Below are positions 33,348 to 48,973 of a stretch of 64,000 nt of DNA, piece after piece (position 1 is the first letter of the stretch; each line of letters opens with the position of its first letter). Both the position numbers and the translations under genes were made by a program. A model generated the notes under the pieces. It was not told where the DNA came from, ran no database searches, and saw only the letters and a program-made list of their open reading frames with translations. The DNA comes from Escherichia coli (lineage in GTDB: Bacteria; Pseudomonadota; Gammaproteobacteria; Enterobacterales; Enterobacteriaceae). The stretch lies in NCBI RefSeq assembly GCF_030013595.1, contig NZ_CP122768.1. One strand, given 5' to 3'.

Positions 33348-34662
33348 TTAATCACCGGCAGCCACGCTGGTCTGTTTACTGTCGTACTTACTGGTGTCCT
33401 GCTGGCTGCTTATCAGCAGGTCGTGGCCCACATCGGCGATAATCCTGTTGCCGTTGACCTGAGCACCGTTCAGTACCGTATCCCGACCACTGTTGATGGT
33501 GACGGTTTTACCGCTGTCTGTTGTGGTTTCAGTCCACTCAGTACCGTTACCTTTCTCGCTGCCTTTTGCCGCATTAACGCTGGCAAAGACGCTGATACCG
33601 GCACCGTTACCACCGGCACCGATACTGACACCCACGCCACCGCCAGCCCCGGTTATCAATGGTGCTGAGGTAGTCACTCCATGAATACGTGTAATCCACC
33701 AGGGTATAGCCATACGGCAGACTGACACCGGCGGCAAAATTCCTCGCATCATGTGACACCGAAAAGTCACTGCTCCGTCCCCCGCTGACAAACCAGTTGT
33801 CAGCCAGCCCCAGAGGATTATTAAAGGAAAGGACACCATTTAACTGCCCCGTACCGGTATTCTTCTGCCCGCTGTTGTCGATGCCCACGCTCCCTGTGAC
33901 TGGCCATTCCGGCAATGCCGTCAGTGTCACCACCGACCATCCCTCACGGTCACCGGGCGATATTTCAATCTGTACCGGTTCCGTACGCAGACGATTAATC
34001 TGCTCCATCCCCTGCTCAATATCCCGCAGGTTCAGAACCTTCCCCTCCATTCCCGGGAAAACCATCTTCAGGGTGCGGGCAGGAAGGTCAGCGCCTTCCG
34101 CCCGGATTTGCTGCAGCCTGCCTTCCATGACCGTTATGTGCAGTACGCCCCCTGAAAGGTCCTGCTCTGTCAGAAAGGCCCGGCTGGTGATATATCCCCG
34201 GCGTATATAGCCGTCCGTCACGGCATCCGTGACCGCAGTCAGGCCGGTGATATTCAGACACTGATTCACCCACGGTGCCACCAGTCTGTCGGTTTCTGCA
34301 GACGTCAGTCGGGTGGCCCCACTGACAACAATGCGTGACACCGTAAAGCAGGGGCCTTCAGTACCGGCAGACGTTTCCGGAGACGGCGTGATAGTCAGCG
34401 GCGCACTGCGCTCCAGCGCATCACGCTGATGCTGGTTTTCATCCAGCAACTGCTGCTGTTGCTGCTGAATTGCACTGCGGTCACCCGGAGACAGCATGGC
34501 TGCCGGAGACGAAAATGCGGGGATAAAAAAACCAGAAAAAACGGAGAGGGAGAGATAGCATATCCACGGAGAGCCACGCCGGAACATATCACAACAGGGG
34601 ACAGACAACGCACGGGATAAAAGGGACGTTTTCGTCAGAATGTTGTTCTGCCGGCGCTGCAT
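33348..34662 (-). pseudogene. two-partner-secretion locus remnant: truncated TpsB (ShlB/FhaC/CdiB-family) transporter plus out-of-frame glycine-rich hemagglutinin-like fragment
   Basis: 351-aa ORF has signal-peptide region, poly-Gln stretch and POTRA-like N-terminal half but ends prematurely; an overlapping 163-aa ORF in another frame is Gly/Thr/Asn-rich like TpsA passenger repeats. Confidence 0.6.
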
Positions 34663-35177
34663 GTTCTCCCCGTATTCTGGCCTGTGTGATGCCAGTGTAA
34701 ATTCATGTCAAAAAGTGTCAGCGAGAAAATTTACACCTGAAAAAGTCTGTCATGAAACAGTTTTATGACAAGACATCAAAAAAATGTCAAAAACGTGATC
34801 TTTCTTCAGCTTTTCAGAATATTGAGTACCAGGAAGTCAATATCAATTCTGGGACACATATGCATTTACCATTAAAACCGGGCACAACAAGCTGTTCAGT
34901 CTCAATCCATACCCCGTGTTTTATCAATATCAGAATAAGAATATCTGCGGATAAATAAAAAAGGAATGTCGAGGGAGCTTACCGCAGAGGGCTCTCCACC
35001 TCACAAACCATTTACAAAAATGATACCGGCATATCTTTGGTCCCTGTCACAACCAGACATTGACAATCCAATATAACCCCAAATATATTTCGGGTAAGAA
35101 GTCTGGGATTTATACAGATATACTGTCTGTTATTACTATTTAATTATATAATTGTATTGCATACATAAGAGGCACTA

Positions 35178-35567
35178 ATGAAACGTTATATAAAATGGTT
35201 TGCCATCACAATTTTTATCAGTATGTTGAGTGCCTGTGCCCGTACGGCCCCAGTGCAACAGATAAGCACCACTGTCAGTGTGGGTCATACTCAGGAGCAG
35301 GTTAAAAATGCCATTTTGAAAGCAGGTGCGCAGCGCAAGTGGATTATGACGCAAGTGTCCCCTGGAGTTATTAAAGCTCGCTATCAAACACGAAATCACG
35401 TTGCAGAGGTTCGTATTACATATACAGCTACCTACTATAACATCAAATATGACAGTAGCCTGAATCTGCAGGCTTCTGATGGAAAAATTCATAAAAACTA
35501 TAACCGCTGGGTGCGTAACCTAGATAAAGATATACAGGTTAACTTATCTACAGGAGCAACGTTATAG
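35178..35567 (+). CDS. apeA: small lipoprotein, first gene of the APE-type cluster
   Basis: 129 aa with lipobox ISMLSAC; sits 64 bp upstream of the methyltransferase gene; symbol assigned by gene order in the published ape nomenclature. Confidence 0.6.
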   Translation: MKRYIKWFAITIFISMLSACARTAPVQQISTTVSVGHTQEQVKNAILKAGAQRKWIMTQVSPGVIKARYQTRNHVAEVRITYTATYYNIKYDSSLNLQASDGKIHKNYNRWVRNLDKDIQVNLSTGATL

Positions 35568-35631
35568 TGATGCTGATATCGGGCTGGAATGGCCCGATAG
35601 TATTTAACTTTCTCTATAAGAATGGTTATAT

Positions 35632-36690
35632 ATGTACGAACAGGACACGCTCAGCGCACTGGATGCCATCACCGAAGCACAGCGGATTGCCTTTGCTCCT
35701 ATGCTTTTCCAGGCAGCTTTGTGCCTGCGCAATGCAGGAATATTAGATTATTTGGATCAACAGGGTAAACAGGGAGCTCCCCTTAATGCGATTACTGAGC
35801 ACACAGTCCTGAATGAATATGCCGTGGGTGTGTTACTGGATATGGGCTTAAGCGGGCGAATTATTACCTGTAAAGAGGGAATTTATTACCTGGCGAAAAT
35901 CGGTCATTACCTCCTGCATGACACTATGACTCGCGTGAATATGGATTTCACCCAGGATGTCTGTTACCAGGGGCTCTTCTTCCTTGCCGATTCACTCAAT
36001 GAAGGAAAACCTTCCGGGTTAAAAGTATTTGGCGACTGGCCGACGATATATCCGGCACTTTCGCAATTACCAGACGCCGCACGTGATAGCTGGTTTGCGT
36101 TTGATCATTACTATTCAGATGGCGCATTTAACGCCGCACTGCCTTATGTATTCGCCAACAACCCCACAACCTTGTACGATGTGGGTGGCAATACGGGTAA
36201 GTGGGCTTTGCGCTGCTGCAAATTCAATGAAAACATCGCCGTTACGTTATTAGATCTGCCACAACAAATCGTACTGGCGAAAGAAAATATCGCGAATGCA
36301 GGTTTTTCTGATCGCATAGATTTCCATGCGGTGGATATGCTAAGCGATGCCCCATTACCAGGCGAGGCTGATATCTGGTGGATGAGCCAATTTTTAGACT
36401 GTTTTTCACCCGAACAAATAATTAGCATACTCAGCAAAATTGCCAGCGTAATGAAGCCTGGCGCAAAACTTTGCATCATGGAGTTGTTCTGGGATGCACA
36501 GCGGTTTGAAGCGACATCGTTTAGCCTGAATGCATCCTCACTTTATTTTACCTGCATGGCAAACGGTAACAGCCGTTTCTATAGTGCAGAGAAATTTTAC
36601 GACTATCTGAATAAAGCAGGATTCCAGGTAGCAGAGTGTCACGATAATTTAGGCGTTGGGCATACACTTTTGATATGCCAAAAGAAATAA
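35632..36690 (+). CDS. apeB: class I SAM-dependent O-methyltransferase
   Basis: 352 aa; motif I LYDVGGNTGKWAL and overall plant-type O-MT-like length with N-terminal dimerisation region. Confidence 0.75.
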   Translation: MYEQDTLSALDAITEAQRIAFAPMLFQAALCLRNAGILDYLDQQGKQGAPLNAITEHTVLNEYAVGVLLDMGLSGRIITCKEGIYYLAKIGHYLLHDTMTRVNMDFTQDVCYQGLFFLADSLNEGKPSGLKVFGDWPTIYPALSQLPDAARDSWFAFDHYYSDGAFNAALPYVFANNPTTLYDVGGNTGKWALRCCKFNENIAVTLLDLPQQIVLAKENIANAGFSDRIDFHAVDMLSDAPLPGEADIWWMSQFLDCFSPEQIISILSKIASVMKPGAKLCIMELFWDAQRFEATSFSLNASSLYFTCMANGNSRFYSAEKFYDYLNKAGFQVAECHDNLGVGHTLLICQKK

Positions 36691-36730
36691 TCGTCACTTA
36701 ATAATTTTGGTTTACCGCGGGCGCGCGTTG

Positions 36731-37453
36731 ATGAAATTTGCATTAAATATTACCAACTGGCAGGCACTGGCGCCTGGACTTAGCGATGTGCAGCAATGGC
36801 AAGCATGGTCGCGCCAGCCGTGGGCGATTGACCCTGCCGCGCCGTTGGCAAAATTAAGTGAACTGCCAATGATGACCGCTCGTCGTCTCAGTTCAGGCAG
36901 CAAACTGGCTGTTGAATGCGGTCTGACAATGCTACGCCGCCATCAGCCAGACGCTGTTTTGTATACCAGTCGTCATGGCGAACTGGAGCGCAATTACCGC
37001 ATTGTTCATGCACTGGCAACCGAACAGGCGCTTTCTCCGACGGACTTCGCGCTTTCCGTACACAACTCTTCCGTGGGTAACCTGACCATTGTGGCCAAAC
37101 AGCCGATCGTTTCGTCATCGCTTTCGGCTGGTCGCGACAGTTTCCAGCAAGGTTTGTGTGAAGTGCTTAGCCTGCTACAAGCGGGATACCAGCGCGTGTT
37201 GATGGTCGATTTTGATGGCTTTCTACCTGAGTTTTATCACCCGCAACTGCCCGCAGAAATGCCTACCTGGCCGTACGCCGTCGCGCTGGTGATTGAAGCT
37301 GGCGATGACTGGCAATGTGAAACGCAGCCAGCCATTGCGGTAAATGAAACAACACTGCCGCAAAGCATCTTGTTTTTACAGCACTATTTACAAAATGCAG
37401 ATGCTTTTTCACTGCCTGGCGAGCGCGTGCAATGGCGCTGGAGCCGCAGATGA
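36731..37453 (+). CDS. apeC: ketosynthase-like protein lacking active-site Cys (chain-length-factor candidate)
   Basis: 241 aa KS N-terminal-like fold without the ACSSS Cys motif or HGT/GHT histidines; start set at MKFALNITNW. Confidence 0.65.
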   Translation: MKFALNITNWQALAPGLSDVQQWQAWSRQPWAIDPAAPLAKLSELPMMTARRLSSGSKLAVECGLTMLRRHQPDAVLYTSRHGELERNYRIVHALATEQALSPTDFALSVHNSSVGNLTIVAKQPIVSSSLSAGRDSFQQGLCEVLSLLQAGYQRVLMVDFDGFLPEFYHPQLPAEMPTWPYAVALVIEAGDDWQCETQPAIAVNETTLPQSILFLQHYLQNADAFSLPGERVQWRWSRR

Positions 37454-38271
37454 GTAAGCTGATGTCGCGCCTGGGATGGGCATGGCGACTGGTCATGACC
37501 GGGTTATGTTTTGTCCTGTTTGGTCTCGGCGGCCTGCTGCTTTCAGTCGTGTGGTTTAACATATTGTTAGTTTTGGTGTGGGATACTTCCCGCCGCCGTC
37601 GTTTGGCACGTCGCAGCATTGCCGCCAGTTTTCGCCTGTTTTTAACTGTCGCGAAAGGGCTTGGCGTGCTGGATTATCGTATTGATGGCGCTGAAATTTT
37701 ACGTCAGGAACGCGGTTGCCTCGTCGTAGCCAATCATCCCACGCTGATCGATTACGTGCTGCTGGCATCAGTCATGCCAGAAACTGACTGCCTGGTGAAA
37801 AGCGCGCTGTTAAAAAATCCTTTTCTTGGCGGCGTCGTGCGAGCGGCAGATTATTTAATCAACAGCGAAGCAGAAACCCTGTTACCCCGCTGCCAACAGC
37901 GACTGGCACAGGGTGACACTATCCTGATTTTCCCCGAAGGCACACGAACGAAGCCCGGTGAAAAAATGACGTTACAGCGCGGTGCAGCGAATATTGCCGT
38001 GCGCTGCACCAGCGATTTACGCATCGTGACGATCGGCTGTAGCGAGCATCTGCTGGATAAACAAAGTAAGTGGTATGACGTCCCGCCTGCCAGGCCGTTT
38101 TTTACGGTTGAAGTCCGTGGGCGGGTAGAAATCAATAAATTTTACGATGCAACTTCACAAGAGCCGACGCTGGCTGCAAGACAGTTAAACCGGCATCTTT
38201 TGCTTCAATTACAGCAAGGTTGTTTACCTCTATCAGGAATAAATAATGCAAGCGCTTTATCTGGAAATTAA
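37450..38271 (+). CDS. apeD: PlsC-family lysophospholipid acyltransferase
   Basis: HX4D motif (ANHPTLIDY) and FPEGTR motif; N-terminal TM segment; ATGA overlap with apeC stop. Confidence 0.75.
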   Translation: MSKLMSRLGWAWRLVMTGLCFVLFGLGGLLLSVVWFNILLVLVWDTSRRRRLARRSIAASFRLFLTVAKGLGVLDYRIDGAEILRQERGCLVVANHPTLIDYVLLASVMPETDCLVKSALLKNPFLGGVVRAADYLINSEAETLLPRCQQRLAQGDTILIFPEGTRTKPGEKMTLQRGAANIAVRCTSDLRIVTIGCSEHLLDKQSKWYDVPPARPFFTVEVRGRVEINKFYDATSQEPTLAARQLNRHLLLQLQQGCLPLSGINNASALSGN

Positions 38272-38503
38272 AAACCTCATCATCAGCACCCTCAATCTGG
38301 ACGACTTGACTCCTGATGATATTGATATCAATGCGCCACTGTTTGGCGACGGTTTAGGGCTGGACTCTATCGATGCACTGGAACTGGGACTGGCAGTAAA
38401 AAATGAGTACGGCATCGTGCTCTCTGCGGAAAGCGAAGAAATGCGTCAGCACTTTTTCTCCGTCGCCACTCTGGCCTCTTTCATTGCTGCGCAACGTGCC
38501 TGA
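38246..38503 (+). CDS. apeE: acyl carrier protein
   Basis: 85 aa with phosphopantetheine attachment motif LGLDSIDALEL. Confidence 0.8.
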   Translation: MQALYLEIKNLIISTLNLDDLTPDDIDINAPLFGDGLGLDSIDALELGLAVKNEYGIVLSAESEEMRQHFFSVATLASFIAAQRA

Positions 38504-38514
38504 GGAAAACCATC

Positions 38515-38766
38515 ATGACAGACCAACAAACCATTTATCAGGAAGTCTCAGCCCTGCTGGTTAAGCTGTTTGAAATCGATCCGCAGGACATCAAACCTGA
38601 AGCGCGACTGTACGAAGATCTGGAACTGGACAGCATCGACGCCGTTGACATGATTGTGCACCTGCAAAAGAAAACCGGTAAGAAAATCAAGCCGGAAGAG
38701 TTTAAAGCAGTGCGTACAGTCCAGGATGTTGTCGAGGCTGTAGAACGCCTGCTACAAGAAGGCTAA
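38515..38766 (+). CDS. apeF: acyl carrier protein (second copy)
   Basis: 83 aa with LELDSIDAVDM motif. Confidence 0.8.
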   Translation: MTDQQTIYQEVSALLVKLFEIDPQDIKPEARLYEDLELDSIDAVDMIVHLQKKTGKKIKPEEFKAVRTVQDVVEAVERLLQEG

Positions 38767-38770
38767 TTTG

Positions 38771-39352
38771 ATGTCGGGCATTCGCTCGCTACCGATGATT
38801 AAGTTGCTGACCGGATTATTGCTGCTCGTCTGGCCTTTTTTAATCTGGCTAGGTTTGGTGCATAACAGCCTGCACTGGCTGTTGCCGCTGATGGCGCTGT
38901 TGCTTTTATTGCGCCTGCGCCAGCCCCGTCGCCAGACGGGGCCGCTCCAGGTCGTCACAAAAATCGTTGCTGTTGTGGGCATTGTATTGTGTGTCTCCAG
39001 TTTTCTGTTGAAAACGTACCAGTTACTGCTGTTTTACCCGGTAGTGGTTAACGCAGTCATGCTGGCGGTTTTTGGCGGTTCGCTGCGGTCGACAATGCCG
39101 ATAGTTGAGCGGCTGGCACGTTTGCAGGAGCCAGACCTCCCGGAAAAGGCCGTGCGATATACCCGCCGCGTAACGCAGGTCTGGTGCCTGTTTTTTATTT
39201 TCAATGGCAGTATTGCGTTATTTACCACCTTGTATGGCAACATGCCCTTGTGGACAGCCTGGAACGGTATCATTGCTTACCTTCTGATAGGTTTCCTGAC
39301 TGCAGGGGAATGGCTGATACGTCGTAAGATGATCAAACGGAAAACACCATGA
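38771..39352 (+). CDS. apeG: integral membrane protein (COG4648-like)
   Basis: Four or more hydrophobic segments; ATG at 38771 preferred over the TTG at 38768 used by the ORF track. Confidence 0.6.
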   Translation: MSGIRSLPMIKLLTGLLLLVWPFLIWLGLVHNSLHWLLPLMALLLLLRLRQPRRQTGPLQVVTKIVAVVGIVLCVSSFLLKTYQLLLFYPVVVNAVMLAVFGGSLRSTMPIVERLARLQEPDLPEKAVRYTRRVTQVWCLFFIFNGSIALFTTLYGNMPLWTAWNGIIAYLLIGFLTAGEWLIRRKMIKRKTP

Positions 39353-40707
39353 ATCAGACTCTCTCACTTTCACAGTGGTTGACAGCCTCTCGCCCTGTAA
39401 CAACTCCTGTTGCCTGGCTTGGGGAATATACCTGGACACTGGGGCATCTGCGGCATGATGTAGCGCTTTTGATCGACCATTTACGCGACCAGCCAGGCAA
39501 TCGCTGGGCACTTTGTTTTGAAAACAGCTATCTTTTTATTGTAGCGTTGTTGGCCACGCTACACTCAGGTAAAATCCCGGTAATCCCGGGCCATAATCGC
39601 GCCGCTTTGTTAAATGTACAACGCTCTTTGTTTGATTGCGTCCTGAGTGATAAAAGGCTGGGCTGGAACGGTCCACAGTTTGTTGTAAGCACATCTCACC
39701 AGATGACGACCAGCACGATAGCCTTTGATGATATTGCTTCTGACGCGTTTATTGAACTTTTCACATCGGGTTCAACCGGACAACCAAAACAAATTGCAAA
39801 ACCTGTTATCAGCCTTGATCAAGAAGCAAACATGCTGGCAACTCACTTTGCAGACCGACTACTGGGCTGTCGTTTTGTAGCATCCGTGATGCCTCAGCAC
39901 CTGTATGGGCTAACTTTCCGTATTTTTTTACCCATGGCACTTGGCCTGCCATTGCATGCCGCAATGCTCTGGTATTCTGAGCAACTTGCCGCATTAAGCC
40001 ATACCTACCGCTATGCCTTTGTCAGCAGCCCGGCGTTCCTTAAGCGACTCGACCTTCATCTGACGCCTCCCCCAGTGGAAATGATTCTCTCTGCCGGCGG
40101 TATGCTACCATGGCAGGATGTAGAGAAAACTTCCACCTGGCTGAATATATGGCCCGATGAAATCTATGGTAGTACCGAAACAGGTATTCTCGCATGGCGT
40201 TACCGTCAACAGGATAATATCCCCTGGTTTACTTTTTCTGATGTTCATCTTTCACAGGAAAGTGAGGGGGTTCGTGTCTTTTCGCCACTAATCCCTGCTG
40301 AAGGATTGGTGCTTGACGATATGTTGCAATTCAATGAAAACGGTCAGTTCCACCTGATCGGACGACGTGGTCGAGTGGTAAAAATAGAGGAGAAGCGGAT
40401 ATCACTGGTTGAAATCGAACAACGACTTCTGGCACTTGACGGTATTATGGATGTCGCTGCAATACCATTAATACGCAATGGCCGCCAGGCTATCGGTGTC
40501 GTGGTTGTACCAAATAAAGAGGCCCGTCAAATATGGCAATGCTCCGGAGGGAAAACTCTGGAGTTGTCCTGGCGCAAAGCACTATTACCATGGCTTGAAC
40601 CTGTTGCAGTACCTCGTTACTGGCGCATTATTGATGAAATACCAGTAAACAGTATGAACAAGCGTGTCTATGCGCAATTACAGGAGTTATTTCATGATAC
40701 GCCATGA
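39349..40707 (+). CDS. apeH: adenylate-forming acyl/aryl-ACP (or CoA) ligase
   Basis: 452 aa with AMP-binding core motifs TSGSTGQPK and YGSTETG; ATGA overlap with apeG. Confidence 0.8.
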   Translation: MNQTLSLSQWLTASRPVTTPVAWLGEYTWTLGHLRHDVALLIDHLRDQPGNRWALCFENSYLFIVALLATLHSGKIPVIPGHNRAALLNVQRSLFDCVLSDKRLGWNGPQFVVSTSHQMTTSTIAFDDIASDAFIELFTSGSTGQPKQIAKPVISLDQEANMLATHFADRLLGCRFVASVMPQHLYGLTFRIFLPMALGLPLHAAMLWYSEQLAALSHTYRYAFVSSPAFLKRLDLHLTPPPVEMILSAGGMLPWQDVEKTSTWLNIWPDEIYGSTETGILAWRYRQQDNIPWFTFSDVHLSQESEGVRVFSPLIPAEGLVLDDMLQFNENGQFHLIGRRGRVVKIEEKRISLVEIEQRLLALDGIMDVAAIPLIRNGRQAIGVVVVPNKEARQIWQCSGGKTLELSWRKALLPWLEPVAVPRYWRIIDEIPVNSMNKRVYAQLQELFHDTP

Positions 40708-41047
40708 AATTGAGCGCCATCTGGTTCAACCGCAGGAGATGGAAATCGTTCTATACCTTGACCCGATGCTCTACTGGTTTAATGGTCATTTTGCCGTACA
40801 GCCTCTGTTACCAGGCGTGGCCCAGTTGGACTGGGTAATGCATTATGCTACCACGCTGCTTGCTCCGGGCTGGCGTTTTCGTAGTATCCAGAATGTTAAA
40901 TTTCTGGCGCCACTTATACCTGAGACGACTGTTACCCTGCAATTAACATGGCAGGAAACAAGTCAGGTACTCACTTTCTGCTATCAGCGTCACGACGGTG
41001 ACGCCCGCCACACCGCCAGTAGCGGGAAGATCCGTCTATGTCGGTAA
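40694..41047 (+). CDS. apeI: hotdog-fold 3-hydroxyacyl-ACP dehydratase
   Basis: About 117 aa FabA/FabZ-like size; start set at MIRHEIER overlapping apeH end. Confidence 0.6.
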   Translation: MIRHEIERHLVQPQEMEIVLYLDPMLYWFNGHFAVQPLLPGVAQLDWVMHYATTLLAPGWRFRSIQNVKFLAPLIPETTVTLQLTWQETSQVLTFCYQRHDGDARHTASSGKIRLCR

Positions 41048-42714
41048 ACTTTTCTCCCTGCGTGTTGATCCCCTGCTACAACCACGGCGCGATGATGCCG
41101 GGCGTGCTGGCGCGTCTTAAGCCATTTAATCTGCCCTGTATTGTGGTGGATGACGGCAGCGATGCCGCCACGCAACAGCAACTGGATAATCTGGTTAGCG
41201 AACAGCCTGGCGTGACCTTAATTCGCCTGGCAGAAAACGCAGGTAAAGGCGCAGCGGTGATGCGTGGCTTGCAGGCAGCGGCAGACGCAGGGTTCAGCCA
41301 TGCGGTGCAGGTGGATGCTGACGGTCAACATGCGATTGAAGATATCCCCAAACTGCTGGCACTCGCTGAACAACACCCTGTGGCGCTGATCTCCGGTCAG
41401 CCAATTTACGATGACTCCATTCCCCGCTCACGGCTGTACGGGCGCTGGGTCACCCACGTCTGGGTATGGATCGAAACGCTCTCCCTGCAACTGAAAGACA
41501 GCATGTGCGGTTTTCGCGTTTATCCGGTTGCGCCGACGCTGCAACTGGCAAAACGCGCCACCATCGGCAAGCGGATGGATTTCGACACCGAAGTGATGGT
41601 GCGCCTCTACTGGCAGGGAAATACCAGCTATTTCGTGCCGACCCGCGTCACCTATCCACTGGACGGGCTTTCGCATTTTGATGCCCTGAAAGATAACGTC
41701 CGCATCTCGCTCATGCACACGCGTCTGTTTTTCGGCATGTTGCCGCGTATTCCTTCACTGCTGATGTGCCACTCTTCCAGCCACTGGGCGCGGCAGAGTG
41801 AAGTTAAAGGGTTATGGGGAATGCGCCTGATGCTGCTGGTCTGGCGTCTGCTGGGAAGAACGGCGTTTACCGCGCTGCTTTACCCGGTGGTTGGCGTCTA
41901 CTGGCTCACCGCTGCTCGTGCGCGTAAAGCGTCGCAAGACTGGCTCGCCCGTGTGCGCCAACAACAACCACAGGCAGCAAAAATCAACAGCTATCAGCAC
42001 TTTCTACGTTTCGGCAACGCCATGCTCGACAAAATCGCCAGCTGGCGCGGCGAGCTGCAACTCGGGCGTGATGTGCTGTTTGCGCCAGGCGCAGAAGCGG
42101 CGCTTGACGTCCGCGATCCGCGCGGCAAATTGCTGCTGGCCTCACATCTTGGCGATGTGGAAGTGTGCCGGGCGCTGGCAAAAATTGAGGGCTACAAAAC
42201 CATTAACGCGCTGGTGTTTAGCGAAAACGCCCAACGCTTTAAACAGATAATGCAGGAGATGGCTCCCCAGGCAGGCATTAACCTGATGCCGGTAACAGAT
42301 ATCGGCCCGGAAACCGCCATCCTGCTGAAAGAGAAGCTGGATAACGGCGAATGGGTGGCGATTGTCGGTGACCGCATCGCCGTCACCCCGCAACGCGGCG
42401 GCGACTGGCGCGTCTGCTGGAGTCCGTTTATGGGCCAGCCTGCGCCCTTCCCACAGGGGCCGTTTATTCTCGCCTCTATTTTGCGCTGCCCGGTGAATCT
42501 GATTTTCGCCCTACGCCAGCACGGCAAGCTGCATATTCACTGCGAAACCTTTGCCGACCCGCTGCTGTTGCCGCGTGGCGAACGCCAACAGGCGCTGCAA
42601 AACGCTATCGACCACTACGCCGCGCGTCTGGAACATTACGCGCTCCAGTCGCCCCTCGACTGGTTTAATTTTTTCGATTTCTGGCAACTGCCGGAAATTC
42701 AGGACAAGGAGTAA
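41038..42714 (+). CDS. apeJ: bifunctional GT2 glycosyltransferase / LpxL-like lipid A-type acyltransferase fusion
   Basis: N-terminal family-2 GT features (CVLIPCYNHG, VVDDGSD, VDADGQH) followed by a C-terminal half resembling HtrB/MsbB late acyltransferases. Confidence 0.7.
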   Translation: MSVNFSPCVLIPCYNHGAMMPGVLARLKPFNLPCIVVDDGSDAATQQQLDNLVSEQPGVTLIRLAENAGKGAAVMRGLQAAADAGFSHAVQVDADGQHAIEDIPKLLALAEQHPVALISGQPIYDDSIPRSRLYGRWVTHVWVWIETLSLQLKDSMCGFRVYPVAPTLQLAKRATIGKRMDFDTEVMVRLYWQGNTSYFVPTRVTYPLDGLSHFDALKDNVRISLMHTRLFFGMLPRIPSLLMCHSSSHWARQSEVKGLWGMRLMLLVWRLLGRTAFTALLYPVVGVYWLTAARARKASQDWLARVRQQQPQAAKINSYQHFLRFGNAMLDKIASWRGELQLGRDVLFAPGAEAALDVRDPRGKLLLASHLGDVEVCRALAKIEGYKTINALVFSENAQRFKQIMQEMAPQAGINLMPVTDIGPETAILLKEKLDNGEWVAIVGDRIAVTPQRGGDWRVCWSPFMGQPAPFPQGPFILASILRCPVNLIFALRQHGKLHIHCETFADPLLLPRGERQQALQNAIDHYAARLEHYALQSPLDWFNFFDFWQLPEIQDKE

Positions 42715-42717
42715 AGG

Positions 42718-43140
42718 GTGCTTAACGATCCCCGATTTACCGCTGAAGTCGAGCTGACCATTCCCTTTCACGACGTCGATATGATGGGCGTGGCCTGGCA
42801 CGGTAACTATTTTCGCTACTTTGAAGTGGCCCGCGAGGCGCTGCTCAACCAGTTCAATTACGGCTATCGGCAGATGAAAGAGTCCGGTTATTTGTGGCCA
42901 GTGGTCGATGCGCGGGTGAAATATCGCCACGCCCTCACCTTTGAGCAACGCATCCGCGTGCGTGCGCATATCGAAGAGTTCGAAAACCGTCTGCGGATTG
43001 GCTATCAGATTTTCGATGCCGAAACGGGCAAACGCGCCACCACCGGATACACCATTCAGGTCGCAGTCGACGAGCAAAGCCGCGAACTGTGCTTTGTCAG
43101 CCCCGATATTCTGTTTGAACGCATGGGAGTCAAACCATGA
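42718..43140 (+). CDS. apeK: 4HBT/YbgC-type hotdog thioesterase
   Basis: 140 aa, GTG start; conserved N-terminal HDVD...GVAWHGNYFRYFE region typical of 4-hydroxybenzoyl-CoA thioesterase family. Confidence 0.75.
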   Translation: MLNDPRFTAEVELTIPFHDVDMMGVAWHGNYFRYFEVAREALLNQFNYGYRQMKESGYLWPVVDARVKYRHALTFEQRIRVRAHIEEFENRLRIGYQIFDAETGKRATTGYTIQVAVDEQSRELCFVSPDILFERMGVKP

Positions 43141-43742
43141 AATTTTTACCGCTGCTGGCGCTGCTGATTAGCCCGTTTGTGAGCGCCCTGACCCGGGACG
43201 ATCTTCAGCAACGCTTTACCGAACAACCGGTGATCCGCGCCCATTTCGATCAAACCCGGACGATTAAAGATCTGCCGCAGCCGCTGCGATCTCAGGGTCA
43301 GATGTTGATCGCCCGCGACCAGGGGTTATTGTGGGATCAAACCTCACCGTTCCCCATGCAACTATTACTGGACGATAAACGCATGGTGCAGGTGATCAAC
43401 GGTCAGCCGCCGCAAATCATCACGGCAGAAAACAACCCACAGATGTTCCAGTTTAACCACCTGCTGCGCGCGCTGTTCCAGGCCGATCGCAAAGTGCTGG
43501 AACAAAACTTCCGCGTCGAATTTGCCGACAAAGGCGAAGGCCGCTGGACGCTGCGCCTGACGCCGACCACCACGCCGCTGGACAAAATTTTCAACACCAT
43601 CGATCTCGCCGGGCAAACCTATCTGGAGAGCATTCAGCTTAATGATAAACAGGGCGATCGCACCGATATCGCTCTTACCCAACATCAACTGACACCAGCG
43701 CAACTGACCGATGACGAACGCCAACGCTTTGCCACCCAGTAA
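43137..43742 (+). CDS. apeL: LolA-like outer-membrane lipoprotein carrier protein
   Basis: 201 aa with signal peptide MKFLPLLALLISPFVSA; size and composition of LolA/LolB fold. Confidence 0.65.
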   Translation: MKFLPLLALLISPFVSALTRDDLQQRFTEQPVIRAHFDQTRTIKDLPQPLRSQGQMLIARDQGLLWDQTSPFPMQLLLDDKRMVQVINGQPPQIITAENNPQMFQFNHLLRALFQADRKVLEQNFRVEFADKGEGRWTLRLTPTTTPLDKIFNTIDLAGQTYLESIQLNDKQGDRTDIALTQHQLTPAQLTDDERQRFATQ

Positions 43743-46029
43743 ACGCCCCGCGCTGTTATGGGGGCTAGTCTGCCTGGTCATGGCGGCGGCGTTGCTGATC
43801 CTGCTGCCACAATCACGACTGAACAGTAGCGTGCTGGCTATGTTACCCAAACAGGCGATGGGCGATATTCCTCCGGCGCTGAATGACGGCTTTATGCAGC
43901 GTCTGGACCGCCAACTGGTGTGGCTGGTCAGCCCCGGTAAAGAGGCTAATCCCAGGGTGGCTCAGGAGTGGCTGACGCTGCTGCAAAAATCCGCTGCGCT
44001 CGGCGACATTAAAGGGCCAATGGATGCCGCCAGCCAGCAGGCGTGGGGAGCGTTTTTCTGGCAGCACCGCAACGGCCTGATTGACCCCGACACCCGCGCC
44101 CGCCTGCAAAATGGCGGCGAAGCGCAGGCGAAGTGGATCCTCTCCCAGCTTTATTCTGCGTTCTCCGGGGTAAGCGGCAAGGAGCTGCAAAACGATCCGC
44201 TGATGTTAATGCGCGGCTCGCAGCTGGCGATGGCGAAAAATGGCCAGCGTTTACGACTAATGGACGGCTGGCTGGTGACGCAGGATCCCCAGGGCAATTA
44301 CTGGTATCTGCTGCACGGCGAACTGGCGGGATCGTCGTTTGATATGCAGCAAACCCACCAGCTCATCACGACCCTGAATACGCTGGAAAAGGCTCTGAAA
44401 ACGCGTTACCCGCAGGCGCAGTTGCTCTCACGCGGCACGGTGTTTTACAGCGATTACGCCAGCCAACAGGCGAAGCAGGATATCTCCACCCTGGGCGTGG
44501 CAACGCTGCTGGGGGTGATATTGCTGATTGTGGCGGTGTTCCGCTCTTTGCGCCCGTTGCTGCTTTGCGTGATTTCCATCGGCATCGGCGCGCTGGCGGG
44601 AACGGCCGCCACATTGTTGATTTTCGGTGAATTACACCTGATGACGCTGGTGATGAGCATGAGCGTTATCGGCATTTCCGCTGACTACACGCTCTATTAT
44701 CTCACCGAGCGGATGGTGCACGGCAACGACGTTTCGCCGTGGCAAAGCCTGGCGAAAGTACGCAATGCCCTGCTGCTGGCGCTGCTCACAACCGTGGCGG
44801 CATATCTGATTATGATGCTCGCCCCCTTCCCCGGCATTCGCCAGATGGCGATTTTTGCCGCCGTCGGGTTGAGCGCCTCTTGTCTGACCGTCCTGTTCTG
44901 GCATCCGTGGCTGTGCCGTGGTCTGCCGGTGCGCCCGGTTCCGGCGATGGCGCTGATGCTACGCTGGCTGGCAGCGTGGCGGCGCAATAAAAAACTGTCG
45001 CGGGGTCTGCCCGTTGCGCTGGCGCTGTTTTCGCTGGCGGGGATGTCAATGCTGCGCGTCGATGACGATATCTCGCAGTTACAGGCGCTGCCGCAGCACA
45101 TTCTGGCGCAGGAGAAAGCCATTACCGCCCTGACCGGACAAAGCGTCGATCAAAAATGGTTTGTAGTTTACGGCGACTCCCCACAGCAAACATTGCGGCG
45201 ACTGGAGAAATATACCGCCTCACTTGAGTATGCGAAAAAAGAGGGGCTTATCAGCAACTACCGCACTATTCCGCTGAACTCCCTGGCGCGGCAGGAGGAA
45301 GACTTAGACCTGCTGAAAACGGCTGCCCCGACGGTAACAAAAGCACTGCAAAATGCAGGGCTGACGGCGGTGAAACCAGATCTCAACGCCATGCCGGTGA
45401 AGGTCGATGAATGGCTGGCAAGCCCCGCCAGTGAAGGCTGGCGTCTGCTGTGGCTGACGCTGGAAAACGGCGAAAGCGGTGTACTGGTGCCGGTTGAAGG
45501 GGTTAAAAGTAGCGCATTGTTGCAGGAAATCGCCAGCTATTACCCTTGCGGCATTGCCTGGGTTGATCGCAAAAGCTCCTTTGATGAATTGTTCGCACTT
45601 TACCGCTACGTCTTAACCGGCTTGTTGCTGGTGGCGCTGGCAGTGATTGCCTGCGGCGCAGTGGCCCGTCTCGGCTGGCGCAAAGGGCTTATCAGCCTGG
45701 TGCCTTCGGTGCTTTCGCTGGGCTGTGGTCTGGCGGTGCTGGCGATGAGCGGGCAGGCGGTGAATCTCTTTTCGCTGCTGGCGCTGGTGCTGGTGCTTGG
45801 CATCGGTATCAACTACACGCTGTTTTTCAGTAATCCGCGCGGTACACCGTTAACTTCGCTACTGGCGATCGCGCTGGCAATGCTCACCACCTTGCTGACG
45901 CTGGGAATGCTGGTATTCAGCGCCACCCAGGCCATCAGCAGTTTTGGCATTGTGCTGGTGAGCGGTATTTTCACCGCCTTCCTGCTTTCGCCGCTGGCTA
46001 TGCCCGATAAAAAGAGAACAAAAAAATGA
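43711..46029 (+). CDS. apeM: MMPL/RND-superfamily membrane exporter
   Basis: 772 aa with two hydrophobic TM bundles separated by soluble domains; start uncertain (ATG at 43711 or TTG at 43729). Confidence 0.75.
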   Translation: MTNANALPPSKRPALLWGLVCLVMAAALLILLPQSRLNSSVLAMLPKQAMGDIPPALNDGFMQRLDRQLVWLVSPGKEANPRVAQEWLTLLQKSAALGDIKGPMDAASQQAWGAFFWQHRNGLIDPDTRARLQNGGEAQAKWILSQLYSAFSGVSGKELQNDPLMLMRGSQLAMAKNGQRLRLMDGWLVTQDPQGNYWYLLHGELAGSSFDMQQTHQLITTLNTLEKALKTRYPQAQLLSRGTVFYSDYASQQAKQDISTLGVATLLGVILLIVAVFRSLRPLLLCVISIGIGALAGTAATLLIFGELHLMTLVMSMSVIGISADYTLYYLTERMVHGNDVSPWQSLAKVRNALLLALLTTVAAYLIMMLAPFPGIRQMAIFAAVGLSASCLTVLFWHPWLCRGLPVRPVPAMALMLRWLAAWRRNKKLSRGLPVALALFSLAGMSMLRVDDDISQLQALPQHILAQEKAITALTGQSVDQKWFVVYGDSPQQTLRRLEKYTASLEYAKKEGLISNYRTIPLNSLARQEEDLDLLKTAAPTVTKALQNAGLTAVKPDLNAMPVKVDEWLASPASEGWRLLWLTLENGESGVLVPVEGVKSSALLQEIASYYPCGIAWVDRKSSFDELFALYRYVLTGLLLVALAVIACGAVARLGWRKGLISLVPSVLSLGCGLAVLAMSGQAVNLFSLLALVLVLGIGINYTLFFSNPRGTPLTSLLAIALAMLTTLLTLGMLVFSATQAISSFGIVLVSGIFTAFLLSPLAMPDKKRTKK

Positions 46030-46610
46030 TCAAATCCACATTCTGGCGAGCGTTCGCCCTGACCGCTACGCTTATCCTCACCGGCTGTAGCCACTCGCAA
46101 CCAGAACAGGAAGGCCGCCCGCAGGCGTGGCTGCAACCTGGCACGCGCATCACGCTGCCGGCACCAGGGATTTCACCCGCAGTCAATTCGCAGCAACTGT
46201 TGACCGGCAGCTTCAACGGCAAAACCCAGTCGCTGTTAGTGATGCTTAACGCCGACGATCAGAAAATCACCCTTGCCGGGCTGTCGTCGGTCGGCATTCG
46301 CCTGTTTCTGGTGACCTACGATGCGCAAGGGCTACGCGCCGAGCAATCCATCGTCGTCCCACAGTTACCGCCCGCAAGTCAGGTACTGGCTGACGTGATG
46401 CTCAGCCACTGGCCGATTAGCGCCTGGGAGGCGCAACTTCCCGCAGGATGGACACTTCGCGACAACGGTGACAAACGCGAGCTGCGTAACGCCAGCGGCA
46501 AACTGGTCACGGAAATCACCTATCTGAATCGCCAGGGAAAACGCGTGCCAATCAGAATTGAGCAGCATGTCTTTAAATACCACATCACCATTCAATACTT
46601 AGGTGAATGA
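46026..46610 (+). CDS. apeN: DUF3261-type lipoprotein
   Basis: 194 aa, lipobox LTGCSHS; ATGA overlap with apeM. Confidence 0.6.
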   Translation: MIKSTFWRAFALTATLILTGCSHSQPEQEGRPQAWLQPGTRITLPAPGISPAVNSQQLLTGSFNGKTQSLLVMLNADDQKITLAGLSSVGIRLFLVTYDAQGLRAEQSIVVPQLPPASQVLADVMLSHWPISAWEAQLPAGWTLRDNGDKRELRNASGKLVTEITYLNRQGKRVPIRIEQHVFKYHITIQYLGE

Positions 46611-46611
46611 T

Positions 46612-47781
46612 ATGATTTATATTTCCGCCGTCGGCATGATCAACGCCCTGGGAAATAACCTTGACGAAATCGCAGCCAACCTGGCTCGCGGTGTCGCCCC
46701 CGGCATGCGCCCACGCGCAGGCTGGTTGCAGGGGCATCCGCAGGCGGTCCTGGCTGGCGTGGATGGCGAGCTTCCGCTTATCCCGGAAAAATTCGCTGCG
46801 CATCGCTCGCGCAACAATCAGATCCTGCTGGCGGCGCTGGCGCAGCTCCAGCCGCAGGTTGATGACGCTATCGCGAAATATGGCTGCGAGCGCATCGCGA
46901 TTGTGCTTGGCACCAGCACCTCCGGCCTGCATGAAGGCGACACGCACGTTAACCTGCACACCCACGGGCAGCCGAGCACCACGTGGCACTATGCACAACA
47001 AGAACTCGGCGATCCGTCGCGTTTTCTCAGCCACTGGCTGGCGCTCGACGGCCCGGCTTATACCCTTTCAACCGCCTGCTCCTCCAGTGCCAGAGCAATG
47101 ATCAGCGGGCGCAGGCTTATCGAAGCGGGGCTGGTCGATGCCGCCATTGTGGGTGGCGCAGACACCCTGAGCCGAATGCCGATTAACGGTTTTCACAGCC
47201 TCGAATCGCTCTCGCCAACCTTATGTCAGCCGTTTAGTCGTGACCGCGCAGGTATCACCATTGGTGAAGGGGCGGGGCTAATGCTGCTGACCCGGGAACC
47301 GCAGCCCATCGCGTTGCTGGGCGTTGGTGAATCGAGCGACGCTTACCATATTTCAGCCCCGCATCCGCAGGGCGAAGGAGCGATCCGCGCTATTAATCAG
47401 GCGCTGACCGATGCGCAGCTTACGCCGGATGACGTCGGCTATATCAACCTGCACGGCACCGCCACACAGCTCAACGACCAGATTGAATCAATGGTGGTTA
47501 ACGCCCTGTTTGGCGAACGCGTACCGTGCAGCTCCACCAAACATTTGACCGGACACACGCTCGGCGCGGCTGGCATTACCGAGGCGGCAATTAGTATGTT
47601 GATTTTACAGCGTGATTTACCGCTGCCCGCTCAGGACTTCAGCCTGTCGCCGCGCGATCCCACGCTGCCACCGTGTGGCATTATCGAAAAACCGCAGCCG
47701 CTGGCACGTCCGGTGATCCTGTCCAATTCCTTCGCCTTTGGCGGCAATAACGCCAGCATTCTGCTCGGGAGGGTTTCGTGA
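46612..47781 (+). CDS. apeO: beta-ketoacyl-ACP synthase (KS)
   Basis: Active-site motif STACSSSARAM plus LHGTATQ and GHTLGAAG histidines; start set at MIYISAVG (ORF track starts at GTG 46603). Confidence 0.85.
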   Translation: MIYISAVGMINALGNNLDEIAANLARGVAPGMRPRAGWLQGHPQAVLAGVDGELPLIPEKFAAHRSRNNQILLAALAQLQPQVDDAIAKYGCERIAIVLGTSTSGLHEGDTHVNLHTHGQPSTTWHYAQQELGDPSRFLSHWLALDGPAYTLSTACSSSARAMISGRRLIEAGLVDAAIVGGADTLSRMPINGFHSLESLSPTLCQPFSRDRAGITIGEGAGLMLLTREPQPIALLGVGESSDAYHISAPHPQGEGAIRAINQALTDAQLTPDDVGYINLHGTATQLNDQIESMVVNALFGERVPCSSTKHLTGHTLGAAGITEAAISMLILQRDLPLPAQDFSLSPRDPTLPPCGIIEKPQPLARPVILSNSFAFGGNNASILLGRVS

Positions 47782-48242
47782 GCCACTATTTATCCCCCGG
47801 CGCTTATCTGCCCCACGACGCGCCCATGTTACTGCTGGAAGACGTGGTGAGCGTCAGCGATGACAGCGCGGTGTGCCGCGTGACGGTTTCGCCCAGTGGC
47901 GTACTGGCACCGTTTCTCGACCCGGACGGCAATCTCCCTGGCTGGTTTGCCCTTGAACTGATGGCGCAAACCGTCGGCGTCTGGTCTGGCTGGCATCGCC
48001 ACCAGCAGGGCAAAAACAGTATTGAGTTAGGGATGATACTGGGCGCGCGTGAATTGCTTTGCACCACTGGCATTCTGCCCGCAGGCCAGACGCTGACCAT
48101 TACCGTCAAACTGCTGATGCAGGACGATCGCTTCGGCAGCTTTGAGTGCAGCATCAACGACGGCGAGGCGACGGGCCGCATTAACACCTTCCAGCCGACC
48201 GCGGAAGAACTTACCACCCTGTTTCAACAAGGAGCGTCCTGA
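47778..48242 (+). CDS. apeP: hotdog-fold 3-hydroxyacyl-ACP dehydratase
   Basis: 154 aa FabA-like; GTGA overlap with apeO stop. Confidence 0.65.
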   Translation: MSHYLSPGAYLPHDAPMLLLEDVVSVSDDSAVCRVTVSPSGVLAPFLDPDGNLPGWFALELMAQTVGVWSGWHRHQQGKNSIELGMILGARELLCTTGILPAGQTLTITVKLLMQDDRFGSFECSINDGEATGRINTFQPTAEELTTLFQQGAS

Positions 48243-48973
48243 TGAGTCGTTCAGTTCTGGTTACTGGTGCCAGCAAAGGCATTGGTCGCGCCATCGCCTG
48301 CAAGCTTGCGGCAGACGGCTTTAACATTGGCGTTCACTATCACCGTGACGCCACAGGCGCTCAGGAAACGCTGAATGCCATTGTCGCCAACGGGGGTAAC
48401 GGGCGTTTGCTCAGTTTCGACGTCGCAAACCGCGAACAGTGTCGGGAAGTGCTGGAGCATGAGATCGCGCAACACGGTGCCTGGTACGGCGTGGTCAGTA
48501 ACGCCGGGATCGCCCGCGATGCCGCTTTTCCGGCTTTAAGCGATGACGACTGGGATGCGGTGATCCACACCAACCTCGACAGTTTCTACAACGTCATTCA
48601 GCCGTGCATTATGCCAATGATCGGCGCGCGCCAGGGTGGGCGCATCATCACGCTGTCCTCGGTTTCCGGCGTAATGGGCAATCGCGGCCAGGTGAATTAC
48701 AGCGCAGCCAAAGCCGGAATTATCGGCGCAACAAAAGCACTGGCTATCGAACTCGCAAAGCGCAAAATCACCGTCAATTGCATCGCGCCAGGGCTTATTG
48801 ATACCGGGATGATCGAAATGGAAGAAAGCGCTCTGAAAGAGGCAATGTCGATGATCCCCATGAAACGTATGGGCCAGGCGGAAGAAGTTGCCGGGCTTGC
48901 CAGTTATTTAATGTCTGATATTGCGGGTTACGTCACCCGCCAGGTTATTTCCATCAACGGAGGGATGTTATGA
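48242..48973 (+). CDS. apeQ: SDR-family 3-oxoacyl-ACP reductase (FabG-like)
   Basis: Rossmann motif VTGASKGIGRAIA and catalytic YSAAK. Confidence 0.85.
   Translation: MSRSVLVTGASKGIGRAIACKLAADGFNIGVHYHRDATGAQETLNAIVANGGNGRLLSFDVANREQCREVLEHEIAQHGAWYGVVSNAGIARDAAFPALSDDDWDAVIHTNLDSFYNVIQPCIMPMIGARQGGRIITLSSVSGVMGNRGQVNYSAAKAGIIGATKALAIELAKRKITVNCIAPGLIDTGMIEMEESALKEAMSMIPMKRMGQAEEVAGLASYLMSDIAGYVTRQVISINGGML

Follow-up and report, generated by a model that had tools for sequence, protein, structure and literature searches.

A predicted 4-hydroxybenzoate:ACP ligase and a putative editing thioesterase in an aryl polyene gene cluster of Escherichia coli

According to published descriptions, no other family of biosynthetic gene clusters is as widespread in Gram-negative bacteria as the aryl polyene (APE) clusters. 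The E. coli ape cluster produces an aryl polyene lipid of the membrane that is yellow and acts as an antioxidant; in uropathogenic E. coli this lipid confers protection against oxidative stress and increases biofilm formation. The cluster of strain CFT073 has been heterologously expressed and also deleted gene by gene, and its product bears a 4-hydroxy-3-methylphenyl head group. In this system ApeH was assigned as a 4-hydroxybenzoate (4-HBA) acyl-ACP synthetase, and a ΔapeE strain is unpigmented (Johnston 2021, PMC8253772), and for ApeF a role as carrier of the lipid's second, conjugated fatty acyl chain has been proposed. ApeH of Xenorhabdus doucetiae activates 4-HBA by adenylation and transfers it to the ACP directly rather than via CoA (Grammbitter 2019, summarized in PMC8253772), and ApeH of Acinetobacter baumannii preferentially loads p-hydroxybenzoate onto ApeE (PMC12624758).

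Here we describe a locus from a 64,000-nucleotide stretch of E. coli DNA (assembly GCF_030013595.1, contig NZ_CP122768.1), termed the window. By sequence comparison, positions 39349..43140 are identified as apeH-apeI-apeJ-apeK, the middle part of an 18-gene E. coli APE cluster, apeA–apeR, which spans positions 35178..50199:

35178..35567, + strand: apeA, small predicted lipoprotein, first gene of the cluster and equivalent of c1204 (ORF, RefSeq CDS, gene table of PMC8253772)
35632..36690, + strand: apeB, SAM-dependent methyltransferase, methylates the aryl head group (NCBIfam, PMC8253772)
36731..37453, + strand: apeC, ketosynthase chain-length factor (RefSeq annotation; PF13723 in orthologous loci)
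37450..38271, + strand: apeD, lysophospholipid acyltransferase (RefSeq annotation, NCBIfam)
38246..38503, + strand: apeE, starter acyl carrier protein, acceptor of the ApeH product (PDB 9ls6 match, PMC8253772, PMC12624758)
38515..38766, + strand: apeF, second acyl carrier protein (NCBIfam ACP PRK05350, E 1.8e-43)
38771..39352, + strand: apeG, COG4648 membrane protein (RefSeq annotation)
39349..40707, + strand: apeH, ATG start, 452 aa, adenylate-forming predicted 4-hydroxybenzoate:ACP ligase (acyl-ACP synthetase type)
40694..41047, + strand: apeI, hotdog dehydratase subunit, partner of ApeP (PDB matches; RefSeq "ApeI family dehydratase")
41038..42714, + strand: apeJ, bifunctional, GT2 glycosyltransferase (residues 8-132; PF00535, E 4.3e-20) plus a C-terminal domain
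42718..43140, + strand: apeK, GTG start, 140 aa, hotdog thioesterase of the YbgC/FadM/4HBT class (RefSeq coordinates identical)
43137..43742, + strand: apeL, LolA-like carrier (RefSeq annotation)
43711..46029, + strand: apeM, MMPL/RND exporter (RefSeq annotation)
46026..46610, + strand: apeN, DUF3261, LolB-like (RefSeq annotation)
46612..47781, + strand: apeO, elongating ketosynthase (RefSeq annotation)
47778..48242, + strand: apeP, dehydratase (RefSeq "ApeP family dehydratase")
48242..48973, + strand: apeQ, ketoreductase, FabG2 (RefSeq annotation)
48970..50199, + strand: apeR, ketosynthase, last gene of the cluster (RefSeq annotation)

The 15-kb cluster DNA is 98.25% identical to that of CFT073 over window positions 34478..50269, and both clusters contain the same 18 genes, with gene order and gene lengths conserved, in agreement with Table 1 of PMC8253772. 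The 18 genes also occur in this order in Edwardsiella, Pantoea and Serratia, between unrelated flanking regions, and the cluster is present in 841 of 5426 complete E. coli genomes (~15%). An earlier, sequence-only reading had placed the adenylation enzyme and the thioesterase within one operon, and this holds: the genes form a co-directional, tightly packed string, with apeG/H, H/I, I/J, J/K and K/L junctions of -4, -14, -10, +3 and -4 nt. The same span comprises apeI and apeJ, which that reading left undescribed. A promoter and terminator scan of the cluster yielded sites not above shuffled controls (17 versus 13.2±4.9; 22 versus 18.9±5.4), including no convincing internal terminator in 39349..43140.

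Among the neighbouring proteins, ApeB matches the NCBIfam FlxJ-family methyltransferase model over residues 2-351 of 352 aa (E 1.1e-141), with 471.8 bits against a cut-off of 560. ApeE matches PDB 9ls6, which we take to be A. baumannii ApeE, with an E of 5.7e-25 and 58% identity, including the glycine-rich GDGLGLDS around the phosphopantetheine serine. ApeI matches PDB 3esi (E 1.8e-40) and PDB 6qsr_A (E 3.6e-40, 62.5% identity); the latter entry is presumably X. doucetiae ApeI, and the PDB table names the molecule “AMP-dependent synthetase and ligase” and gives no organism. With these attributions, the ApeE and ApeI matches serve as proxies for orthology, at the level of the cluster, to the systems that have been characterised biochemically. 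The C-terminal domain of ApeJ is an acyltransferase according to the literature.

The location of apeH–K within an APE cluster, together with an ApeH-first 4-HBA pathway and subsequent lipid assembly, very probably provides the best explanation of the region; gene identities and the conservation of catalytic motifs stem from this analysis, and the chemistry from published work on CFT073, X. doucetiae and A. baumannii. According to this scheme, 4-HBA would be supplied by the E. coli ubiquinone pathway via UbiC and adenylated by ApeH, which would hand over the acyl group, without a CoA thioester, straight to the phosphopantetheine arm of ApeE. Starter and malonyl units would then be converted to a hexaene by type II PKS-like enzymes, the predicted extension set comprising the ketosynthases ApeO:ApeC and ApeR, the ketoreductase ApeQ and the dehydratase ApeI:ApeP. 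Ring methylation by ApeB would yield the 4-hydroxy-3-methylphenyl head group. ApeD and ApeJ would build the lipid, with ApeJ taking the polyene from ApeE and adding GalNAc, and ApeG, L, M and N would carry the lipid to the outer membrane.

A known pathway is recovered here from sequence alone. ApeK is identical to CFT073 c1193 in 140 of 140 residues. The sequence-only reading had attributed the gene at 42718..43140 to the 4-hydroxybenzoyl-CoA thioesterase fold family, in line with matches to Pfam 4HBT_2 (PF13279, E 1.3e-16, residues 16-131) and 4HBT (PF03061, E 7.8e-8); the best PDB match is 6fdg (E 4.7e-18, 35.5% identity over 107 residues). One residue aligns with the aspartate of the ETD motif in 6fdg and 2egi:

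42778..42780, + strand: codon of ApeK Asp21 (FHDVDMMGV), predicted catalytic aspartate

Asp21 is invariant across four genera, and its presumed catalytic role is that of the corresponding aspartate in the YbgC/4HBT family. The position of apeK between apeJ and apeL is kept in three further genera, where ApeK is 83-86% identical. For every NCBIfam model matched, ApeK scores below the cut-off (TIGR00051, 61 bits versus 68.7; MenI, 76 versus 225; YbgC, 47 versus 141). An AlphaFold2 model based on a 4-sequence alignment was poor (mean pLDDT 40.2).

ApeK is an Asp-type hotdog thioesterase, and we tentatively favour the view that it is an editing hydrolase, which might clear wrongly acylated or stalled ApeE/ApeF. 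Proofreading by ApeK is a published proposal (PMC8253772), and a literature search for recent work on ApeK returned Johnston 2021 only. 4-Hydroxybenzoate is mis-loaded onto ApeF by ApeH at low efficiency; ApeK would remove, for example, such a 4-hydroxybenzoyl group and thus keep both lipid-assembly branches running. A ΔapeK strain partly keeps its pigment and lacks the mature lipid (PMC8253772). This loss of mature lipid is equally compatible with a late role in assembly.

Such a late role would be that of a chain-release or hand-over thioesterase, which cuts the completed polyene chain (or the conjugated fatty acyl chain) from the ACP for attachment to the lipid anchor, an assignment that is possible if doubtful. 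Johnston 2021 lists release as an option, puts apeK with the attachment genes apeD and apeJ, and finds that immature APE carboxylic acids pile up in ΔapeK, ΔapeA and ΔapeB strains, where the final lipid is absent (PMC8253772). Moreover, apeK immediately follows apeJ and precedes the export genes apeL/apeM, and a weak homologue is Orf6 (PDB 3r87/4i45; E 3.4e-4 to 7.5e-4), a hotdog thioesterase encoded in the cluster for a polyunsaturated fatty acid synthase. However, the X. doucetiae enzyme reportedly hydrolysed neither 4-HBA-CoA nor ACP-bound APE intermediates in vitro, and free APE acids appear even without ApeK (PMC8253772). Furthermore, in the APE-lipid model ApeJ takes the polyene straight from ApeE, leaving no part for ApeK.

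ApeK could also represent the step that separates the two carrier-protein branches, rather than a simple, dispensable proofreading of starter loading or a release enzyme, a view that we consider rather unlikely. If 4-hydroxybenzoyl-ApeF, or another mis-acylated form of ApeF or ApeE, is specifically hydrolysed by ApeK, the ApeF branch would be blocked in a ΔapeK strain, which would therefore still form aryl polyene acids in free form while lacking the mature lipid. Likewise, if ApeK is specific to mis-acylated carriers, the negative assays on 4-HBA-CoA and ApeE-bound intermediates would follow.

The analysis supports ApeH as a compact ANL-superfamily enzyme that is predicted to load 4-hydroxybenzoate directly onto ApeE. 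The protein is identical to CFT073 c1197 in 450 of 452 residues (99.6%, full length, ungapped), and the two exchanges, V153L and S435N, are both conservative. The AMP-binding enzyme singled out by the sequence-only reading through its motifs TSGSTGQPK and YGSTETG is indeed the 452-aa ORF 39349..40707, which contains both:

39763..39789, + strand: ApeH motif A3 / P-loop TSGSTGQPK, residues 139-147, with T139-G144 and P146 invariant
40165..40185, + strand: ApeH motif A5 YGSTETG, residues 273-279, invariant in 14 orthologues
40660..40662, + strand: codon of ApeH Lys438, the A10 lysine (PVNSMNKRV), invariant in 14 orthologues

In the ANL superfamily, the A10 lysine catalyses the adenylation half-reaction. 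Across the 14 orthologues used for motif conservation (63-87% identity), residue 147 is K or R, and A7 (D323/D324) as well as A8 (GRRGRVVKI, residues 338-346, including G338-R-R…K345) are invariant. The enzyme had been noted as shorter than usual fatty acyl-CoA ligases (E. coli FadD has 561 aa); orthologues measure 449-466 aa (120 full-length, among the matches listed), and therefore the short length is a family trait rather than a truncation. The best 120 homologues listed all belong to the Enterobacterales and share at least 63% identity. The gene is located between apeG (COG4648) and apeI, 3' of the tandem ACPs, and likewise in Edwardsiella, Pantoea and Serratia. The match to Pfam AMP-binding (PF00501) is divergent (E 6.5e-7), the match to the C-terminal domain falls short of significance, and RefSeq names the identical gene acyl-CoA synthetase or class I adenylate-forming enzyme. 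A PDB sequence search retrieved distant NRPS, DltA and CoA-ligase matches only (best E 8.7e-9), which are uninformative on the substrate, and an AlphaFold2 model from a 14-sequence alignment was poor (mean pLDDT 57.7; residues 166-271 below 50).

The sequence-only reading had proposed that a 4-hydroxybenzoate-type aryl acid is activated and loaded onto an ACP as the methylated head group. This proposal is supported and matches the published pathway for the near-identical cluster; the idea of starter loading with 4-hydroxybenzoate is right but already known from earlier publications. A start from 4-coumarate, as in flexirubin-type pathways, is very unlikely. The top NCBIfam model for ApeH is the short 4-coumarate-CoA ligase TIGR02372 (E 3.3e-21), yet the score of 75.4 bits falls far below the cut-off of 334.7. 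In vitro, A. baumannii ApeH can use p-coumarate as well, giving p-coumaroyl-ApeE (PMC12624758), and its specificity is therefore not absolute; nevertheless, an ammonia-lyase gene is absent from the cluster and the window, and published reconstitution and pathway models begin at 4-HBA supplied by UbiC.

The term “4HBT” denotes a fold, not a substrate. The sequence-only reading had also derived the aryl substrate from the “4HBT” fold of the thioesterase, a step that is invalid because ApeK is remote from the authentic enzyme and the 4-HBA-CoA assay with the X. doucetiae orthologue was reportedly negative. For the same reasons, it is highly improbable that ApeK is a genuine 4-hydroxybenzoyl-CoA thioesterase controlling the pool of a 4-HBA-CoA starter, a reading that the reported assay has already largely refuted. 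The Pfam 4HBT and 4HBT_2 matches might suggest this function, as might 6fdg, which was deposited as “4-hydroxybenzoyl-CoA thioesterase”; however, this deposited name mirrors the fold family only, and the pathway contains no CoA intermediate (PMC8253772). A profile of four ApeK orthologues matches the authentic Pseudomonas enzyme 1bvq only marginally (E 0.021, 17.8 bits), with YbgC and many uncharacterised proteins ranking higher, and among NCBIfam models the S. aureus DHNA-CoA hydrolase MenI comes nearest, its cut-off being missed by a wide margin. Finally, it is hardly conceivable that ApeH is an ordinary fatty acyl-CoA or acyl-ACP ligase providing an aliphatic chain, since the RefSeq label “acyl-CoA synthetase”, weak local matches to Aas and FadD-type NCBIfam models and the conjugated fatty acyl branch of the lipid with its fatty-acid primer are set against scores of 20-30 bits versus cut-offs of 476-886 for all such models (PRK06187, 24.8 versus 476; PRK08314, 21.8 versus 705; PRK09274, 30.3 versus 478), which leave ApeH outside the FadD-type families, against the crediting of the second-branch primer to the housekeeping enzyme AasS, and against the loading of 4-HBA by ApeH orthologues (PMC8253772, PMC12624758).

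Given the role of the APE lipid in uropathogenic E. coli and the position of ApeH at the committed first step, ApeH is a plausible anti-virulence target.

Among known systems, the locus corresponds to APE(Ec) of CFT073, c1204-c1186 (Cimermancic 2014; Johnston 2021, PMC8253772), where ApeH is c1197 and ApeK is c1193. The genomic setting differs: the window cluster resides in a tRNA-Phe island behind fecIRABCDE, whereas the CFT073 cluster lies in an island that adjoins pgaABC/dgcT and has its own integrase. The ape cluster of X. doucetiae (10.1101/2020.12.19.423268) belongs to a different genus, but shares the gene set apeB-R and the nomenclature with the window, and its product has the same head group and hexaene as that of CFT073; the classification of ApeH as a 4-HBA acyl-ACP synthetase goes back to biochemical work on this system (Grammbitter 2019, according to later work), whose ApeH and ApeK proteins are WP_045972716 and WP_045972722. 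The A. baumannii ApeH/ApeE pair (PMC12624758) is more distant, and its ApeH is named “benzoyl-ACP synthetase” there. By description, the XanA2/XanC pair of Xanthomonas is similar: there, too, an aryl polyene is begun on its own ACP, which receives hydroxybenzoate from an adenylate-forming ligase (Cao 2018, summarized in PMC6859482); yet the xanthomonadin pathway differs in using 3-hydroxybenzoate from the cluster-encoded chorismatase XanB2, in its brominated product and in its cluster layout. The thioesterase of the Pseudomonas sp. CBS3 type (1bvq) belongs with 4-chlorobenzoate dehalogenation genes, whereas the context of apeK is the ape cluster. ApeK shares the fold family and the N-terminal catalytic Asp motif with the YbgC/FadM/MenI Asp-type hotdog acyl-CoA thioesterases (6fdg, 2egi, 1z54, 1s5u); it differs from them in that its gene lies within a PKS-like lipid cluster.

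The region belongs to a known and already named system that has been dissected by experiment, and it is all but identical to the E. coli reference. The chromosome of strain CFT073 (NC_004431.1) carries the same 18 genes at 1143727..1158748, and window 34478..50269 aligns with CFT073 1143658..1159448 at 98.25% DNA identity. At the protein level, the ligase is identical to its CFT073 counterpart in 450 of 452 residues and the thioesterase in 140 of 140. The CFT073 genes c1204-c1186 constitute the reference E. coli aryl polyene (APE) cluster apeA-apeR, in which c1197 encodes the acyl-ACP synthetase ApeH and c1193 the thioesterase ApeK (Johnston et al. 2021, Table 1; PMC8253772). The RefSeq neighbour names “ApeI family dehydratase” and “ApeP family dehydratase” agree with this assignment. 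The window ape genes are intact, orthologous to the reference cluster and retain the catalytic motifs. The 3.8-kb span from apeH to apeK is 100% identical to several complete E. coli genomes. Of 5426 complete genomes of this species, 841 carry the entire 15-kb cluster, exclusively on chromosomes; its allelic groups show at least 99%, about 98% and about 94% identity, and O157:H7 falls in the third of these groups. The APE finding is already known, and ApeK is the residual point of interest.

A long series of co-directional, overlapping open reading frames (ORFs) was called on the plus strand of the window from 35178 to 50199. The span under study comprises the following genes, among which apeI and apeJ were absent from the sequence-only reading.

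Genes in window 39349..43140
39349..40707, plus strand: apeH, 452 aa, ATG start; Pfam AMP-binding, E 6.5e-7 (weak)
40694..41047, plus strand: apeI, small hotdog dehydratase
41038..42714, plus strand: apeJ, GT2 glycosyltransferase domain at residues 8-132
42718..43140, plus strand: apeK, 140 aa, GTG start; Pfam 4HBT_2, 1.3e-16, and 4HBT, 7.8e-8

The coordinates originally proposed for the ligase and thioesterase genes are exact, and the ORFs agree with the RefSeq boundaries of apeH and apeK in an E. coli genome 100% identical over 39349..43140. The junctions apeG/H, H/I, I/J, J/K and K/L measure -4, -14, -10, +3 and -4 nt, and a promoter/terminator scan of the cluster found no internal terminators in 39349..43140 exceeding shuffled controls. 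Given these tight junctions and the lack of an outstanding internal terminator, it is fair to describe both genes as embedded in the operon.

Published ApeH/ApeE chemistry and orthology to the reference cluster also bear out the proposal that the ligase activates an aryl acid for loading onto an acyl carrier protein (ACP), with a methyltransferase as partner. X. doucetiae ApeH adenylates 4-hydroxybenzoate (4-HBA) and transfers it to the ACP with no CoA thioester in between (PMC8253772). According to the text of the E. coli study, pigment is lost in most core-gene mutants, and apeH is not among the exceptions it names (PMC8253772). In E. coli, 4-HBA derives from UbiC (PMC8253772). Both in vivo and in vitro, the carrier protein ApeE is preferred as acceptor over its companion ApeF (PMC8253772, PMC12624758). 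A. baumannii ApeH yields p-hydroxybenzoyl-ApeE and is also able to form p-coumaroyl-ApeE (PMC12624758).

The motifs TSGSTGQPK and YGSTETG recognized in the AMP-binding enzyme occupy ApeH residues 139-147 and 273-279. A protein search retrieved 1387 relatives at E <= 1e-10, the best 120 of which all belong to Enterobacterales (63-99% identity); since the full-length members among these comprise 449-466 aa, the short length noted for the ligase is a stable family property. Across 14 aligned orthologues, the core of the adenylate-forming (ANL) superfamily is invariant, including T139-S-G-S-T-G, Y273-G-S-T-E-T-G, D323/D324, G338-R-R…K345 and the A10 lysine K438. Residue 147, at the end of the A3 motif, is K or R among these orthologues. 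The A8 “hinge” position in ANL enzymes is usually Asp (GRxD); in ApeH (residues 338-342, window 40360..40374) and most orthologues it is Gly (GRRGR), and 3 of the 14 have Asp (GRRDR). As a fatty acyl-CoA ligase or 4-coumarate-CoA ligase, ApeH stays below the curated NCBIfam cut-offs, which is consistent with a separate subfamily. The predicted structures of ApeH and ApeK were of too poor a quality to draw on.

The final X. doucetiae lipid is built on a glycerol-phosphate-GalNAc scaffold, with ApeD and ApeJ as proposed attachment enzymes (10.1101/2020.12.19.423268). An intermediate consisting of a conjugated fatty acyl chain on glycerophosphate (cFA-glycerophosphate) has been observed in ΔapeJ. 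The C-terminal 308 residues of ApeJ (251-558, window 41788..42714) are termed an acyltransferase in the literature. Neither Pfam nor NCBIfam has a model matching this portion, and a PDB sequence search gave no relative at E < 0.26; thus the domain proposed to join the polyene to GalNAc is unclassified by sequence.

The term 4HBT denotes a fold family, members of which cleave many different acyl thioesters. ApeK belongs to this family, as had been proposed; reading a 4-hydroxybenzoate substrate from the fold is unsound, since the authentic Pseudomonas 4-hydroxybenzoyl-CoA thioesterase (1bvq) matches ApeK at E 0.021 at best, profile search included. The step from 4HBT to substrate is therefore weaker than the conclusion drawn from it. 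The best PDB match is 6fdg, a Staphylococcus protein deposited as 4-hydroxybenzoyl-CoA thioesterase (E 4.7e-18, 35.5% identity), and among NCBIfam models the top hit is MenI, the DHNA-CoA hydrolase of S. aureus, with a score far under the cut-off. Among four ApeK proteins (window, Edwardsiella, Pantoea and Serratia; 83-86% identity to the window’s ApeK), the aspartate D21 of the FHDVD motif is invariant; in YbgC/4HBT-class thioesterases of known structure, the residue aligned with it is the aspartate of the catalytic motif.

An E. coli ΔapeK mutant is still partly pigmented and builds up immature APE acids, and the mature lipid is missing from it (PMC8253772). We tentatively rank editing as the most likely role of ApeK. 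ApeH mis-loads ApeF with low efficiency (PMC8253772, PMC12624758), and ApeF is the proposed carrier of the second acyl chain (10.1101/2020.12.19.423268). In a candidate variant, ApeK would clear 4-hydroxybenzoyl-ApeF; such clearance, if real, would account for both negative assays of X. doucetiae ApeK, reported inactive on 4-HBA-CoA and on ACP-bound APE intermediates, as well as for the lipid loss in ΔapeK. Release or hand-over of the product by ApeK ranks second and appears rather doubtful; the biosynthetic scheme of 2020 assigns no function to ApeK and proposes that ApeJ receives the polyene straight from ApeE (10.1101/2020.12.19.423268). A literature search found no later work on ApeK. A true 4-HBA-CoA hydrolase, the activity under which 6fdg was deposited, is highly improbable.

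The APE cluster looks as if it sits in a tRNA-Phe genomic island.

Island features upstream of apeA (window coordinates; gene names for 22562..35000 taken from strain P13-6, 99.5-99.98% identical)
22562..22637: tRNA-Phe
about 22835..24097: tyrosine integrase, next after tRNA-Phe
between integrase and fec operon: degenerate IS1
about 25265..32810: fecIRABCDE ferric citrate operon
about 33354..34662: truncated two-partner-secretion pseudogenes (hemagglutinin fragment, ShlB/FhaC), followed by apeA

The segment shared with CFT073 starts within the ShlB pseudogene and stops about 70 nt past the apeR stop, whereas outside this segment the two strains differ completely, the CFT073 island adjoining pgaABC/dgcT and carrying its own integrase. 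Owing to these wholly different surroundings, the APE cluster and the ShlB remnant seem to form one module moving between islands. Within window 34000..50000 the GC content steps from about 0.47-0.50 (apeA-apeH, 34-40 kb) to about 0.57-0.60 (apeJ-apeR, 42-50 kb); the downstream flank has about 0.45-0.48. Upstream of apeA, 89 nt from its start, is a near-consensus sigma-70 promoter-like site (35060..35089; TTGACA, 18 nt, TATATT; 11/12 matches), the top match of a 16.5-kb scan in which the total number of sites was not above shuffled expectation.

The sequence link to the X. doucetiae and A. baumannii systems was made through ApeI and ApeE. ApeI matches PDB 6qsr_A (E 3.6e-40, 62.5% identity), which we take to be X. 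doucetiae ApeI; the PDB table for 6qsr lists no source organism, and the molecule name there is “AMP-dependent synthetase and ligase”. For ApeE the match is 9ls6 (E 5.7e-25, 58% identity), presumably A. baumannii ApeE. Along its entire length, ApeB fits a FlxJ-family model from flexirubin synthesis (E 1.1e-141), slightly under the equivalog cut-off. The three orthologues traced, on Edwardsiella, Pantoea allii and Serratia contigs, all retain the 18-gene order amid unrelated flanks, and in each a 4HBT_2 protein of 140 aa is encoded between the GT2 and LolA-like genes. Directly after apeR, the P. allii contig (L006, 20952..21362) carries a phosphopantetheinyl transferase gene (PF01648); at this place, window 50200..51040 has only a pseudogene fragment and a divergent gene for a LacI regulator, accompanied by PTS genes. 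ApeE/ApeF activation in E. coli reportedly depends on the unlinked AcpT (PMC8253772). Closest in mechanism are the ApeH/ApeE pairs of X. doucetiae and A. baumannii, together with Xanthomonas XanA2/XanC, a 3-HBA:ACP ligase (PMC6859482).
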